The notes under the pieces are model-generated. The model was not told where the DNA came from and ran no database searches. It saw nothing but the letters and a program-made list of their open reading frames with translations. Shown here one piece after another: positions 3,497 to 39,713 of a stretch of DNA of 64,000 nucleotides. Source of the DNA: Bdellovibrionaceae bacterium UBA3535. GTDB lineage: Bacteria; Bdellovibrionota; Bdellovibrionia; Bdellovibrionales; UBA840. The stretch covers positions 246,532-310,531 of the forward strand of contig DFOS01000024.1 of assembly GCA_002376845.1 (NCBI GenBank), given 5' to 3'. Position numbers and translations under genes: made by a program. Position 1 is the first letter of the stretch; the number at the start of each line of letters is the position of its first letter.

Positions 3497-3869
3497 ATGT
3501 GAGTTTTTCAAAGATATCGTTCAAAACGGCTCGTCGATCTTGGCGAGTCTCCTCAATAAAGTACATAAGATCATCGACAATTTGCACATCGCGGTTATTG
3601 CAATGATAAAACTGTACGCCAGCACCATATTGGTTCTTCCACACGATTTTTGCCGTTAAATTGCGCTCTCGCGAGCCAACCTTGAAGCGTAGGTTGATTT
3701 TTTCAGATAGATCTAGTCCATCGGTGGTGGTTTTTAAGAAGGCACCGCTTAAGCTAATATTCAAAAGCTGCCCTTGGATCTCGCGGCGACCATAAGTCTT
3801 ACGAAAATCAACGCCCACATTTAAGGGAATGCGCTTAGCAGGCTTGATATCAGAGCTTAGAGTTTTCAT
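3495..3869 (-). CDS. PilZ domain protein (c-di-GMP receptor)
   Basis: RKTYGRR...NISLSGAF matches the PilZ RxxxR / (D/N)xSxxG motifs. I prefer the start at MKTLSS (3869), which is preceded by GGAGG. The longest ORF reaches 3881. Confidence 0.7.
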   Translation of the reverse strand: MKTLSSDIKPAKRIPLNVGVDFRKTYGRREIQGQLLNISLSGAFLKTTTDGLDLSEKINLRFKVGSRERNLTAKIVWKNQYGAGVQFYHCNNRDVQIVDDLMYFIEETRQDRRAVLNDIFEKLT

Positions 3870-20023: not shown

Positions 20024-20199
20024 AAAATAAAAAACCGCCAACACCTTTGGTGCTGCCGGTATTTTTAGTGGCGGAGGGGGTGAGATTGTTTCGGGCTCCT
20101 GCCCTCAACCCTTCGCAAAGCTCAGGGCTCCTCCGGAGCTTAAAAACACCATCCTGGTATTTTGATCGAACTCCGTGCATTGTTCCAATGCTAACCCAC
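20024..20199 (-). other. Duplicated tRNA-Ser(UGA) terminator plus last 19 nt of the tRNA, with a ~112-nt non-coding insert (divergent member of the tRNA-3'-end-linked element family)
   Basis: 20024-20087 repeats 20200-20265, with one substitution and a 2-A indel. The repeat covers the terminator hairpin and TGGCGGAGGGGGTGAGATT. ORF-track peptides MVLPVFLVAEGVR / MVLPVFLMAEGVR mirror the duplication. Confidence 0.6.
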
Positions 20200-20246
20200 A
20201 AAATAAAAAAAACCGCCAACACCTTTGGTGCTGCCGGTATTTTTAA

Positions 20247-20336
20247 TGGCGGAGGGGGTGAGATTCGAACTCACGAAGGGCGTGAACCCTTGCCAGTTTT
20301 CAAGACTGGTGCATTCAACCACTCTGCCACCCCTCC
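20247..20336 (-). tRNA. tRNA-Ser (anticodon UGA), CCA encoded
   Basis: Hand-folded. Acceptor GGAGGGG/CCCCUCC. Anticodon arm CCAGU-CUUGAAA-ACUGG. Long variable arm. T arm GUGAG-UUCGAAU-CUCAC. Confidence 0.9.
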
Positions 20337-20561
20337 GCGGATGGAAGCGCCAAGATAATCAGCGCACCAAGGAAGGGCAAGAAATACTTATTTTAGTCCC
20401 CCGCATAAGCTAAATATTGTGCAATAATATGGAGATAAGTCCCTTATAGCGAGTGAAAGGCCATGATAAAGCAAAGCTTGTAATTTTTATAGACCTAACA
20501 TATGATTGCAAAGTCTGTTGGGGAACAGATGGGAGTGCAAGGATGCAGTCAAGGGGGGAAT

Positions 20562-34568: not shown

Positions 34569-37500
34569 TTATTGGCAAGTATATTCACTACAGGCTACGC
34601 GTACACCGTCACGGTTACTCACACAATCTCCAAGGGTGTAGCCACTTGGAACTTTAGAACAAGTGTCGCCGGAGGCCCCACAACTAGCTCCATTTCGTAC
34701 ATCACTCGCACACATCGGGGCGGGGCTTCCTATATCAAACGCACCTGTTCTTACCCAGCTTAGAGTGAATTCACATCCTGTCATCAGCCAGCTTCCGCTG
34801 GATTGACATTGATAGATACCTAAGTTGGGTTCTACACAGTTTCCGCTAGGTGCTCTTGCGCTGCAACAAGCATCGGTAACAGCGCGTTGAGTTTCTCCTT
34901 CGTTTGCTTCGTATAGGCCAGCAGGAATACTTCCGCTTGGTGGGATTGCAGCACAGGTGGCTCCAAGTGGCTCACAGCGTTTAGTAGATTCGCAAGGCTC
35001 TGGACCTGTCATCAACTTGGGAGTAGTGCAGCAAGCATCATCTACCACGGAACCAGTTCCATCCCAACATACGATATCACGAGTGATGGGTCCTTGAGGC
35101 GCATCGTCCACAACTCTTTCTGTCGCAGGGTCACAGCCTGGGTCTGGTGGGTTTTTACATTGTCCCCAGCTTACTGGCGACCATGGAGGAAGGTTCCATC
35201 CGTAAGGACCGTCATTGCAGACGCCAGCATCAGGCTCACAGCACTCTCTGCCGCCAACTATGGAGCAATTGGTTTCAAATCCTGCAGTTCGCTCTTGTGT
35301 GCCCCCGGGACAGGATCTTCTTCCACAGAACTGATCGGGCTCATTTTCAAAACAACTATCAAAGCCGTCGGGACTTGCAGGATCACACGTTTCTAAAGGA
35401 TCAGGACAAGGAGGCACCGCTGGCTCACATCCACAAGAATTAGCTGCAGTGCAAGCCGCATAGGCTGCGGCATCAAGACCTGTACCGCAAGGCGAACAAG
35501 GTCCTACCACTAAACAGGCCAACTCTTTGGCACAAACGGTATTGTTGCGTAGGGTGCAATCTTCCATATAACCATCATTATTACATGCAGCCAACGCGCC
35601 AGCACCGGTACCAGGGATCGTTGTTTCACCGGCTAGACAGGCTGTACCATCGCCGCCACCGCAGATGATGGAGTTCTCTTCCGGAGTGCCGGCACAAGCA
35701 ATGACTTCCTCACAGTCGCCGTATTCGGAATTGCATTCAGCCATACTGGCAACTTCGATTTTGGTTCCTGGACATGTGGGTGTTGCTGTACATGCAGCAG
35801 GCGGTGAAGGAGGTGGTGGTACGGCATCGCCGCAACCAGGAAATGGCGGGCAAAATGGGTCCACGCCATCTCCGGCAGGGGAGGCGTCAGGTGCACTACA
35901 AGTACCATAGTCTTCTACTACAGTGGTGCCCGAGGATGATTTGTTATCATAGGTATTGGTTGTTTCCTCGGTACATGTTTCTCCGCCATACCCATCTGGA
36001 ACACAGACCTCTTCGGTTTCCGTTTTTCTACATTTTCTCTTCCTAGTGCATGGAGCACCTTCGTAGTCGCCGGGGTGATTGCTTGTATCAATAGATATAA
36101 AGTCGGCATCACAAGGTGGAGGTGTTGGAGCGACACATCGGTAGGAATCACCTATACATTCACTATCTTGCGTGTCGTTTTCACACAAATCACCTGTGGA
36201 ATCGGCATAACAATTATTAGGTCCTTTTGTCCAAACTACGCTCTCAGCCTTTTTACAAAAACCTGTTCCTGGAGCCAGGTGGTCGCAAACATAGCCGCTT
36301 GCGCATGATACCGAGCTACAAGAATTCGTGACTCCATCGTCATTTCCTCGAACTTCATATTCAGCATAGGCAGATTTTAAATAGCGGCCGCAACCATCTG
36401 CTATATGATAACAAAAGCCGCCGGCCCCGGTGGTGTTTTGGTGGCAACCACTAGGAGCTTCCCAACTTGGTGTATCGCAATTTCCTGCGCCTGAGGTAAC
36501 GTCAATTACTTCGGGATCGCCCGTGATAGTACTACCATTAAATTGTGGACAAGCCACTGCAGTAGGTAGGCGAGATCCGCTACTTGGCCCCACTTCATGG
36601 TTGCCATTTACCACACCGCTTGCAACAGAAAAGTTAATGCTGGCACCTGTGCTTGTAAGCTGTTTTACACCGCCGCCTGGGTTGGGCACATTCAGGTCAT
36701 CGGGAATATCAGCAGTCCATGTTTCTCTTGGACTTTCTGGGCCATTACCACATAGGTCACAGGATATACCAACGGCTTCATATTCACCGCTTTGACTGAC
36801 GTTTTGTAGATTCGTATTGCCGCAGGTAGCAGTTACGCCGCTGCCGCTAACACCAGAAGCCACACCCGTATCTTTTGGCGTAACTTCGATAGGTTCAGTT
36901 CCCGGGCTTGCGGTCCAAGGTGCTGTACCGCCACTACACTGAAAGGCATCTCCCAATACTCCATCAATGCCAGGGAATAAGGCGGCATTTGAGCCCAACC
37001 AGTCAGATGGGGCGGCCACTCTCAGGGCACCCGAAGTAGGTTGGTTAACCGAAGCGGGCCCTGGACGATTCAAATCCACTCCCACATCGTAAGCTCTTGA
37101 AGCACTTACACCAGAGGTAATGGTGGCATTTCTTGCAACATCAATTTCCATTACATGGAAGCGGTAAAAGCCTTCTTGGGTATTGGTCACCTCAAGGCTA
37201 AAGCCGTTTAGCATTACAGATTCGGCGGTAATTACGCCACCACCAAAATTTGCACCCAGGCCGCAAATGAACCAACCAGTGGAGGTAAAAGCGGTGGAGC
37301 CATTTTCATTTTCAGCATGGTCCATTCGGCAAAGAACTTGTGAGCCATTGCCAATGCCGCTTACGCGGTAGCGAAAACCAGGTCTAGTTCCTGGTGTTCC
37401 GCATAGATAGCGGTCCATTCGCTGATCCGCTAAAGAAAGTGGTTCCCATTCAATGGTCAAAGGATCGGGCGGATTGGGCAAACGGCCCGGCTTTACATTA

Positions 37501-38291
37501 ATGGTAGTTTCGCAAACTTTTCTTTGATCCGCGTTCAATGGTAGATAGCTAAGGCGCAAGCTCACACGGTAGGATCGATCATGTGTTGTCGGCGCATCAG
37601 GGTTATTGTTCATAATTAATGGATTAAAGCGACTTGGTGCATTGGCAGCTGCATAATCAATGGTGCCACCTGTGTCTTCCACTTCAATTTGCGCTTCCAC
37701 ACGAGGATTGTCCATCCCGCCAATGTACTGCATGGCTATTTGAGATAAAAAGTCATCGCCAGCAGCACCGTTGCCATCGGGATCTGTTGGGTTGCCATTA
37801 TTAACCAGGACAAATTCTGCACCGTTAGTATTATGATAAATGGGAGTCAGTAAAGTTGAGGCGGAGCGAACTAGCTGCCAGTTATTGGCTCTTTGTGCTG
37901 CGATACCTATATTGTTCCAGTCCCAATTGCGAAAATTATCTCCGGTGTTAGCACTAATTTGCATTTCTGCCGCTGGATAGGCAATTTCTGTTGTTTCATC
38001 GACATTCATATGCAGCATATTGTAAGTGATGGGATAATCTAGTTCAGCTGTAGGGTCCAATCTGCCAGGACCTGGAAGCCAAGAGTTGATCAGACCATTG
38101 TTATCCCGGGCTTTGATGGCACCCACCATAGACTGCAATCGAACCGAACAGGTACTAGAGGATTCTAGCTTCTTGCTGTCTTCATTGGAATTTACAATAT
38201 AACTAGATGTAACAAGGGCAACGCCGGCTACCATAGCAGCGGCCATCATTGCTTCTAAAAGGTTCATACCCTTGTTATTATTGATGAACAT
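34569..38291 (-). CDS. Giant (1240 aa) cysteine-rich protein with type IV prepilin-type N-terminus
   Basis: N-terminus MFINNNKG/MNLLEAMMAAAMVAGVAL has Gly at -1, Glu at +5 and a hydrophobic helix. I count 74 Cys, 69 of them after about residue 450. G+C is visibly higher than in neighbouring genes. Confidence 0.75.
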   Translation of the reverse strand: MFINNNKGMNLLEAMMAAAMVAGVALVTSSYIVNSNEDSKKLESSSTCSVRLQSMVGAIKARDNNGLINSWLPGPGRLDPTAELDYPITYNMLHMNVDETTEIAYPAAEMQISANTGDNFRNWDWNNIGIAAQRANNWQLVRSASTLLTPIYHNTNGAEFVLVNNGNPTDPDGNGAAGDDFLSQIAMQYIGGMDNPRVEAQIEVEDTGGTIDYAAANAPSRFNPLIMNNNPDAPTTHDRSYRVSLRLSYLPLNADQRKVCETTINVKPGRLPNPPDPLTIEWEPLSLADQRMDRYLCGTPGTRPGFRYRVSGIGNGSQVLCRMDHAENENGSTAFTSTGWFICGLGANFGGGVITAESVMLNGFSLEVTNTQEGFYRFHVMEIDVARNATITSGVSASRAYDVGVDLNRPGPASVNQPTSGALRVAAPSDWLGSNAALFPGIDGVLGDAFQCSGGTAPWTASPGTEPIEVTPKDTGVASGVSGSGVTATCGNTNLQNVSQSGEYEAVGISCDLCGNGPESPRETWTADIPDDLNVPNPGGGVKQLTSTGASINFSVASGVVNGNHEVGPSSGSRLPTAVACPQFNGSTITGDPEVIDVTSGAGNCDTPSWEAPSGCHQNTTGAGGFCYHIADGCGRYLKSAYAEYEVRGNDDGVTNSCSSVSCASGYVCDHLAPGTGFCKKAESVVWTKGPNNCYADSTGDLCENDTQDSECIGDSYRCVAPTPPPCDADFISIDTSNHPGDYEGAPCTRKRKCRKTETEEVCVPDGYGGETCTEETTNTYDNKSSSGTTVVEDYGTCSAPDASPAGDGVDPFCPPFPGCGDAVPPPPSPPAACTATPTCPGTKIEVASMAECNSEYGDCEEVIACAGTPEENSIICGGGDGTACLAGETTIPGTGAGALAACNNDGYMEDCTLRNNTVCAKELACLVVGPCSPCGTGLDAAAYAACTAANSCGCEPAVPPCPDPLETCDPASPDGFDSCFENEPDQFCGRRSCPGGTQERTAGFETNCSIVGGRECCEPDAGVCNDGPYGWNLPPWSPVSWGQCKNPPDPGCDPATERVVDDAPQGPITRDIVCWDGTGSVVDDACCTTPKLMTGPEPCESTKRCEPLGATCAAIPPSGSIPAGLYEANEGETQRAVTDACCSARAPSGNCVEPNLGIYQCQSSGSWLMTGCEFTLSWVRTGAFDIGSPAPMCASDVRNGASCGASGDTCSKVPSGYTLGDCVSNRDGVRVACSEYTCQ

Positions 38292-38438
38292 AATTCCTCT
38301 ATATATTAAGTATTATCGGGAAGTATCTGATAGAACTAAAGCCTTTTGCTAAAAAAAGGTCTAGCTTGTCTTTTTTTGATACATTCATGGTGGAAATAAA
38401 AAAAGCGCTAGTACCCAAAGGAAGTACTACCGCTTAAA

Positions 38439-38571
38439 TGGCACGCTCGGAAGGATTCGGCCAAGCGCTCGCATTCGCATCAGGCTCCTGCTCCGCCTGG
38501 CCACCCCGAAAGCCTTTCGCCGTCATCCAGACGGCTCACCCTTACGGGCGGCTTTCTCCCTTCGAATCCTT
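38439..38571 (-). other. tRNA-3'-end-linked structured element, copy at tRNA-Arg (candidate ncRNA or mini integrative-element scar)
   Basis: Starts AAGGATTCGAAGGGAG. Ends with 21 nt identical to tRNA-Arg from the T-loop to CCA. Followed by a second copy of the tRNA terminator. Homologous to 39573-39713 with compensatory changes. Confidence 0.6.
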
Positions 38572-38624
38572 AGATATTTAGAAAAAAAAAGCGCTAGTAC
38601 CAAAAGGAAGTACTACCGCTTAAA

Positions 38625-38701
38625 TGGCACGCTCGGAAGGATTCGAACCTCCGACCACTTGATTCGTAGTCAAGTACTCTATCCAGCTGAGCTACGAGCG
38701 C
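38625..38701 (-). tRNA. tRNA-Arg (anticodon ACG), CCA encoded
   Basis: Hand-folded. GCGCUCG acceptor (G1-U72). Anticodon arm CUUGA-CUACGAA-UCAAG. T arm GGAGG-UUCGAAU-CCUUC. Confidence 0.88.
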
Positions 38702-39427: not shown

Positions 39428-39519
39428 GGAGAGGTGGGTGAGTGGCTGAAACCAGCGGTTTGCTAAATCGCCGTACGGGTCATACCGTACCGAGAGTTCG
39501 AATCTCTCTCTCTCCGCCA
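39428..39519 (+). tRNA. tRNA-Ser (anticodon GCU), CCA encoded
   Basis: Hand-folded. Acceptor GGAGAGG/UCUCUCC. Anticodon arm GCGGU-UUGCUAA-AUCGC. Long variable arm. T arm GAGAG-UUCGAAU-CUCUC. Confidence 0.9.
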
Positions 39520-39533
39520 TTAAAATAAAATAA

Positions 39534-39557
39534 GGTCAGCCTGGCTGGCCTTTTTTT
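39534..39557 (+). terminator. Terminator of tRNA-Ser(GCU)
   Basis: GGTCAGC/GCTGGCC stem (one G-U pair) followed by T7. Confidence 0.7.
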
Positions 39558-39572
39558 ATTTTAATAGTTGAA

Positions 39573-39713
39573 AGAGATTCGAAGGGAGAAGTCTGGCCAG
39601 CCAGTGGCTGGTGAGTGAGCGTGATGCGAACGAAAAGACTTCGGGGTGGTCAGGAGGAGCATGAGCGTGAAGCGAATGCGAGCTCTTGACCGAATCTCTC
39701 TCTCTCTCCGCCA
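39573..39713 (+). other. tRNA-3'-end-linked structured element, copy at tRNA-Ser(GCU)
   Basis: Starts AGAGATTCGAAGGGAG. Ends CGAATCTCTCTCTCTCTCCGCCA, which is the tRNA 3' end plus one extra CT. Shares blocks GATTCGAAGGGAGAA, TTCGGGGTGG and GCGAATGCGAGC with the tRNA-Arg copy. Confidence 0.6.

Follow-up and report, generated by a model that had tools for sequence, protein, structure and literature searches.

A structured insert between two copies of the tRNA-Ser(UGA) 3′ end as a possible diverged member of a putative tRNA-associated mini-element family in a marine Bdellovibrionales lineage

Why does the tRNA-Ser(UGA) gene of Bdellovibrionaceae bacterium UBA3535 carry a second copy of its own 3′ end and terminator, and what kind of DNA lies between the two copies? 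The gene resides in a 64,000-nucleotide stretch of contig DFOS01000024.1 (hereafter called the window), which had been inspected beforehand in a sequence-only reading. That reading proposed that a unit of about 64 bp, composed of the last 19 nt of the tRNA plus its terminator, is present twice at this locus, and that similar appendages are attached to other tRNA genes nearby. Here we describe the characteristics of this locus and of its two counterparts at tRNA-Arg(ACG) and tRNA-Ser(GCT), and we evaluate the processes that may have produced them. The evidence base consists of these three loci in one genome. The population to which the window belongs is an uncultured marine bacterium of predatory type that has been assembled many times from TARA and JGI samples, and its GmhA is most similar to entries labelled as Bdellovibrionota or Bdellovibrionales.

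Read in the direction of the tRNA, the locus is composed of the intact tRNA-Ser(UGA) gene, its own terminator, an insert of 112 nt, the last 19 nt of the tRNA again, and the terminator again (Table 1). A repeat search reports a single 64-nt direct repeat (20024-20087 and 20202-20265) with 95% identity when aligned without gaps. When a gap is allowed, the copies correspond to 20024-20087 and 20200-20265, exactly as the sequence-only reading had delimited them, and they differ at g20068/a20246 and in the length of the terminator tail (A6 versus A8), which are the one substitution and the 2-A indel that it had listed. Both copies contain TGGCGGAGGGGGTGAGATT, the reverse complement of tRNA positions 58-76, in addition to the terminator hairpin, which a terminator scan calls twice (20233-20217 and 20055-20039). 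The last position at which the distal copy matches the tRNA is A58, and thus the identity stops in the T-loop, as had been anticipated. The two spurious ORFs that start with MVLPVFL(V/M)AEGVR are likewise present across the duplication.

Three independent assemblies agree on every base of the locus, and its structure is therefore not an assembly artefact; a fourth contig breaks inside the repeat. No tandem array is reported at this position by TRF, and we rejected a simple tandem duplication on the grounds that the copies are set apart by 112 nt of unrelated structured sequence.

When the 17 nt at the 3′ end of every tRNA in the window, four in total, were used as queries, one extra 3′ end was recovered for each of tRNA-Ser(UGA), tRNA-Arg and tRNA-Ser(GCT), and none was recovered for tRNA-Asn. 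The proposal that three of the four tRNA genes carry an appendage therefore holds. This repeat architecture is found at these three tRNAs and nowhere else in approximately 85 kb of the genome, and the genes surrounding them code for housekeeping or secreted proteins. Given that three tRNA genes exhibit the same arrangement, the loci look like the products of a small, undescribed mobile element family rather than of random duplication.

Table 1. Positions in the window of the features of the three tRNA loci. R1 denotes the covariance model described in the text.
Feature	Position	Strand	Evidence or remark
Intact tRNA-Ser(UGA) gene	20247..20336	-	ARAGORN; Rfam tRNA 61.3 bits
Proximal intrinsic terminator of tRNA-Ser(UGA)	20200..20246	-	Hairpin 20217-20233, then T8-A-T4; terminator scan and sequence
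Ser(UGA) insert, 112 nt, GC-rich	20088..20199	-	Compact fold, tRNA-sense strand only
Hairpin core GGAGCCCTGAGCTTTGCGAA with tandem G.A internal loop	20112..20131	-	Common to all three inserts
T-arm-like GGAGTTCGATC in Ser(UGA) insert	20164..20175 (about)	-	Read from sequence
Distal copy of tRNA-Ser(UGA) positions 58-76, AATCTCACCCCCTCCGCCA	20069..20087	-	Preceded by CCGAA-ACA
Distal terminator copy, Ser(UGA) locus	20024..20068	-	Repeat search and terminator scan
tRNA-Arg(ACG) locus	38398..38701	-	ARAGORN, repeat search; R1 144 bits
tRNA-Arg(ACG) gene	38625..38701		
Proximal repeat, Arg locus	38584..38645		
Arg insert, 124 nt	38460..38583		
Distal repeat, Arg locus	38398..38459		
tRNA-Ser(GCT) locus	39428..39715	+	ARAGORN, repeat search; R1 153 bits
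tRNA-Ser(GCT) gene	39428..39519		
Terminator, Ser(GCT) locus	to about 39562		
Ser(GCT) insert	about 39563..39690		
Distal tRNA fragment, Ser(GCT) locus	39691..39715		
64-codon ORF with homology to large serine recombinases (C-terminal tail)	39711..39902	-	Abuts the distal tRNA-Ser(GCT) fragment

The inserts at tRNA-Arg and tRNA-Ser(GCT) are 85% identical over 127 alignment columns. At tRNA-Arg, a 62-nt repeat comprising the tRNA tail and the terminator lies on either side of the 124-nt insert. At tRNA-Ser(GCT), the terminator is followed by approximately 130 nt and then by a 23-nt copy of the tRNA tail, with no second terminator. A covariance model built from these two inserts (R1) matches only the same two inserts in the window. 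Both are predicted to form the same three-way junction, which is the minimum free energy (MFE) as well as the centroid structure. All 29 modelled base pairs form in both sequences, including seven in which both sides have changed in a compensatory manner, a result that is equalled by 2 of 500 shuffles and by no slid register. Only two clearly homologous copies exist, and therefore this covariation represents a single sequence pair.

In the predicted fold, the first 8-9 nt of each of these inserts pair with the duplicated tRNA piece to form the closing helix, and the initial nucleotides (AAGGATTCGAA; GAAAGAGATTCGAA) are an inverted copy of the T-loop and T-stem 3′ strand of the insert’s own tRNA. 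Folding of the sense strand is favoured over that of the antisense strand by 10-13 kcal/mol, and one G-U pair is conserved. Collectively, these features of the modelled fold indicate a structure that would function either in RNA or in single-stranded DNA corresponding to the tRNA strand. A hairpin with the form UGAGC-loop-GCGAA occurs twice (P2 and P3) in each well-preserved insert (39616-39630 and 39662-39676; 38516-38538), which suggests that a hairpin module was duplicated internally. Antisense coding was also considered, given that this strand is open in all three inserts, but it was rejected because the changes between copies are mostly non-synonymous and are compensatory for RNA pairs.

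The boundaries of the repeats are informative regarding their origin. The Arg and Ser(UGA) repeats (97-98% identity) extend from the T-loop, where the duplicated segment starts at C56-A58, through the last position of the terminator T-run, and they include two unrelated, locus-specific terminators. Moreover, the proximal terminator of tRNA-Ser(GCT) has 16 of 16 nt in common with the terminator of a relative (L133), and thus it is ancestral rather than brought in. Since a foreign attP cannot carry each locus’s own terminator, the repeat represents target DNA of the locus itself that was duplicated on the two sides of the insert.

Comparison with orthologous loci, as the sequence-only reading had recommended, reveals that neither the Arg nor the Ser(GCT) insert is present at the corresponding sites of L133 (82% GmhA identity) and of three further relatives, L005, L007 and L009 (72-75% GmhA identity). 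The order tRNA-Arg, gmhA, tRNA-Ser(GCT) is kept in all four. The L133 sequence that follows the terminator is not significantly similar to the 5′ end of the element (p=0.38). Copy number also varies: a TARA scaffold (L003) has two tandem 186-nt units behind tRNA-Arg (L003 2427-2860), each composed of tRNA tail, terminator and insert, whereas the window has one (38398-38645), and the middle repeat of this array bears the proximal-type terminator SNP.

Does the Ser(UGA) insert belong with the other two? In strength and strand bias, its fold matches theirs. The MFE is −44.9 kcal/mol (z −4.41), and none of 200 shuffles folds equally well; the antisense strand reaches only −28.6 kcal/mol (z −2.1), an asymmetry of 16 kcal/mol. 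Across the three inserts, z ranges from −4.1 to −4.6 and the sense strand is more stable by 10-16 kcal/mol. The GC content of the Ser(UGA) insert (0.51-0.57) exceeds that of its flanks (~0.4).

A composite motif, GGAGC-N2-3-GAGC-N3-5-GCGAA, occurs three times in the 64 kb, with a single match in each insert, and is not seen in 100 shuffles. All three lie on the tRNA-sense strand, near the 3′ junction and at comparable positions. With its 14 specified bases, the motif should turn up by chance only about 0.003 times in the entire window. However, the pattern was loosened after the third sequence, that of Ser(UGA), had been seen, and we therefore take it as moderate rather than strong evidence for the kinship of this insert. 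The simpler pattern TGAGC..GCGAA has five matches in the window, four of which fall in inserts. In the helix around the tandem G.A loop, pairing is maintained by different bases (GCCCU/AGGGU versus GCAU/AUGC), and CCGAA adjoins the tRNA fragment in all three inserts, with three extra bases in that of Ser(UGA). The concern that this insert might be random filler with no counterpart at any other tRNA is thus answered by its strong fold and by a composite motif that is exclusive to the three inserts.

Other comparisons do not link the Ser(UGA) insert to the other two. Neither R1 nor a sub-model of P3 (R2) matches positions 20088-20199 at E≤10 with filters off, such that the structure-aware comparison envisaged at the outset unites the Arg and Ser(GCT) inserts but misses the third. 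A Smith-Waterman comparison with the other two inserts gives a score of 19, against 15.8±2.5 for shuffles (p about 0.12), which is not significant. The alignable body of the others (J1 GAAGGGAG, J2 UCGGGGU and the P2 and P3 helices) was not found in it. Nor does it have a 5′ arm that could pair with its own tRNA; the GTGAGATTCGAA that such an arm would require is missing, and only GGAGTTCGATC is present. Instead, its closing helix is predicted to form within the insert itself.

The sequence-only reading had pointed to shared patches and to the T-arm-like GGAGTTCGATC. Both are indeed there, but the latter shows no measurable tRNA ancestry, in that it has no tRNA match in Rfam and no significant similarity to the tRNAs of the window. 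It is possibly the decayed counterpart of the 5′ arm. Two further interpretations of the 5′ half of the insert, as a fragment of another class II tRNA or as a decayed copy of a tRNA plus terminator, were rejected, each being without Rfam support or a significant alignment.

In its overall layout, the Ser(UGA) locus exhibits the full architecture of the sister family: a terminator, an insert, the CCGAA junction, a tRNA tail that begins in the T-loop, and a second terminator. The original claim of a common architecture is therefore upheld with regard to this layout, the G.A hairpin and CCGAA, but not for the 5′ arm, the alignment or either covariance model. The sequence features at hand, namely one hairpin motif and the CCGAA junction, provide moderate evidence that this insert is a diverged member, or represents a sister sub-family, of the family formed by the Arg and Ser(GCT) inserts.

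We also sought known families that might include these inserts. No Rfam 15 family matches them, with only tRNA reaching its gathering score at these loci, and nothing credible appears in Rfam at E≤10. One sub-threshold match, to the Xanthomonas small RNA sX4 (20187-20342, minus strand), scores 35.9 bits against a gathering score of 70. The sX4 consensus is essentially a tRNA-Ser that is extended at its 3′ side, with the end of the extension folding back to pair with the tRNA 3′ strand; the match at Ser(UGA) is carried by the tRNA part, and sX4 may be distantly analogous to a tRNA-linked appendage. Group IIC introns insert after terminators, and group II intron families (domain V/VI) gave no match on the inserts in Rfam at E≤10. 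Readings as hammerhead, SRP-like or retron RNAs were dismissed because the core motifs, judged by eye, do not fit and the inserts have no Rfam match to them. Promoter prediction returned nothing upstream of the inserts.

Searches for further copies were likewise negative within the collections covered. A strict three-motif pattern run against GTDB species representatives uncovered no family member and three chance matches, of which two fall in coding DNA of Xanthobacter and the third next to a tRNA-Tyr of a Flavobacteriaceae genome. The last of these, in the metagenome-assembled contig L131 (2226-2317), lies directly after the tRNA gene; we judged it to be a chance match because it bears no further resemblance to the family and is not matched by R1. 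A metagenome scan with a 20-base GC-rich pattern returned, among the matches listed, only chance ones in GC-rich coding DNA. Pattern scans of viral sequences found no insert copy, blastn searches of phages and plasmids with the inserts gave only noise (E=0.2), and no further copies were found in protein space by way of the spurious antisense ORFs.

Genes that could mobilise the inserts were also sought. Among the genes called in the window and in 10 kb on either side, none codes for a recombinase, transposase or reverse transcriptase, and no reverse transcriptase or transposase gene of the sort that accompanies retrons, IS110 elements or other RNA-plus-enzyme modules is adjacent to the inserts. 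Directly downstream of the tRNA-Arg appendage is an ORF of 1240 amino acids (34569-38291, minus strand) that is rich in Cys, Gly and Pro and has an N-terminal hydrophobic segment; it contains no Pfam domain.

The region around tRNA-Ser(GCT) has additional features that deserve description in their own right. The 64-codon ORF listed in Table 1 matches the last ~60 residues of large serine recombinases of ~530 amino acids, which have Resolvase and Recombinase domains. Its homology ends at TGGCGGA, the reverse complement of the ...TCCGCCA end of tRNA-Ser. A copy of the ORF with 94% identity and an identical 5′ boundary adjoins the end of an IS66 element in another metagenome (L139 667-918), and a codon-by-codon comparison of the first 55 codons reveals about 11 synonymous and no non-synonymous changes. 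Judging from these sequences, the ORF may be a functional mini-gene, or it may derive from a recombinase that was split at its own att site. It has no viral relatives and no similarity to the tyrosine integrase encoded directly downstream of tRNA-Ser(GCT) in L009 (3311-4408). In L007, a diverged partial tRNA (T-arm plus acceptor strand) is located approximately 380 nt downstream of the same gene (3640-3680). In these relatives, tRNA-Ser(GCT) is an integration hot spot.

Partial tRNA repeats that begin in the T-loop are the textbook signature of tRNA-targeting integrases. It is therefore necessary to consider whether the three loci are scars of classical integrative elements of the prophage, genomic island or tycheposon type, wherein crossover in the T-loop created repeats that correspond to attL and attR and nearly everything between them was later deleted. 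In marine bacteria, tandem and degraded element remnants do occur next to tRNAs, where partial tRNAs and recombinase remnants accumulate (bioRxiv 10.1101/2020.12.28.424599). The direct repeats of the tRNA 3′ part seen here start in the T-loop as such scars should, and the L009 integrase, the L007 partial tRNA and the serine-recombinase remnant abutting the Ser(GCT) fragment all fit the same picture. Our main counter-argument is that the repeats contain locus-specific terminators, which is beyond what a foreign attP carries; the proximal Ser(GCT) terminator, moreover, is ancestral and not borne by an element. Deletion would have occurred independently at all three loci and on each occasion spared 112-124 nt beginning ~10 nt past the terminator, yet what was spared is conserved, structured and marked by compensatory changes. 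In addition, our searches detected no phage or plasmid similarity, and there is no integrase gene or remnant at Ser(UGA), the sole remnant being that of the serine recombinase at the Ser(GCT) locus. On balance, we regard scars of this type as an unlikely explanation, albeit one with appreciable weight.

The strength and strand specificity of the folds, and the presence of a terminator at the end of each, would also suit resident small-RNA genes. Such tRNA-trailer RNAs would have arisen locally, borrowing the tRNA tail and terminator as a 3′ module without any mobility, and the Ser(UGA) insert would be unrelated to the others. This last aspect accords with its own closing helix and with the failure to align it to the other two inserts, and the fixation of its locus in all assemblies also favours this reading. 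What it explains poorly is the 85% identity between inserts that sit at two tRNAs on opposite strands, Arg and Ser(GCT), and that close relatives nevertheless lack, a pattern that requires copying between loci. The copy-number polymorphism at tRNA-Arg and the motif common to all three inserts also speak against it, and we give it a rather small chance of being correct. A more restricted alternative is that Ser(UGA) alone is a one-off local rearrangement, a slippage or repair duplication with arbitrary filler that resembles the true elements by chance. The non-significant alignment (p about 0.12), the silence of both covariance models and the missing 5′ arm are what one would expect of such an event. 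Arbitrary filler should not fold with a z of −4.4 and a strand asymmetry of 16 kcal/mol, nor should it contain a motif with 14 specified bases, expected ~0.003 times by chance, in a comparable position and on the same strand. The repeat boundaries (T-loop to the end of the T-run) and the CCGAA junction are also the same, and we consider this explanation very unlikely.

Each of the closest known kinds of element fails at least one defining feature tested here. The partial-tRNA att repeats of tyrosine-integrase islands, prophages and marine tycheposons resemble our loci in that the tRNA 3′ part is repeated directly around an insert with identity from the T-loop, in the tandem accumulation on the tRNA-proximal side, and in the recombinase remnants nearby. 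They differ in that the inserts described here are 112-124 nt long, free of genes and conserved as a fold, in that the repeat extends through a locus-specific terminator, and in the lack of an integrase or of phage or plasmid similarity. CIMEs and other trans-mobilised derivatives likewise have att-like repeats at both sides, carry no recombination genes of their own and can form tandem arrays. CIMEs, however, reach lengths of kilobases and descend from an autonomous partner that is known, whereas the inserts have no known partner and a double-stranded circle of ~180 bp would be an improbable intermediate.

Folded single-strand sites may be comparable to the inserts. The attC sites of integrons and the attP of CTX phages are about 60-140 nt long, are conserved in structure and not in sequence, adopt a strand-specific fold with wobble pairs, and have a stem that rebuilds a target-like duplex. 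Unlike these sites, the inserts have no attC core motifs, integron integrase or Xer context. Finally, group II introns (through EBS/IBS pairing), IS110 bridge RNAs and TPRT retroelements, whose target duplications are long, share with the inserts, as we model them, a short element segment complementary to the target, a structured RNA of ~120 nt, and a target duplication bounded by two staggered breaks, but the reverse transcriptase, DEDD transposase, domain V/VI, Rfam match or ORF that would identify them is missing here.

Given the observations and alternatives presented above, our preferred explanation, to which we assign a probability of roughly 0.4, is that the three inserts are lineage-specific, non-autonomous, structured mini-elements that insert behind tRNA genes and duplicate the local segment from the T-loop to the terminator, with the Ser(UGA) copy being a diverged member. 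According to this tentative model, the element would be transcribed by read-through from the tRNA promoter, the duplicated terminator would end the transcript, and the element would be moved in trans. The responsible enzyme would introduce two staggered breaks, one in the T-loop of the tRNA gene and the other behind the terminator, and the intervening 62-66 nt would be filled in on both sides. We know of no bacterial precedent for a target duplication of 62-66 bp. The 5′ arm and the CCGAA end may provide target recognition through base pairing, and candidates for the enzyme would include a recombinase acting on the folded single strand or a reverse transcriptase copying the read-through RNA.

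A bolder version of this model holds that the structured RNA or single-stranded DNA of ~120 nt is a new type of programmable non-autonomous mobile element. Its arm would pair with the T-loop and T-stem of a chosen tRNA, and would differ according to the tRNA, and the element would be copied in behind that gene, duplicating the stretch that reaches from the T-loop to the terminator. The Ser(UGA) insert would then be a decayed or re-structured relative. We think it quite unlikely that the proposal is correct in this strong form.

Partial tRNA copies are routinely read as integrase footprints. If the preferred explanation is not true, the loci described here are ordinary island scars. What sets them apart is that the duplicate includes a locus-specific terminator and that the inserted piece is a tiny, conserved and strand-specific fold with an arm that matches its own tRNA. 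If our preferred explanation holds true genome-wide, it would describe a route of insertion at tRNA genes that needs no element-encoded enzyme and that maybe chooses its target by base pairing, and it would reveal a new way in which tRNA-linked small RNAs arise, here in a marine lineage that is uncultured.
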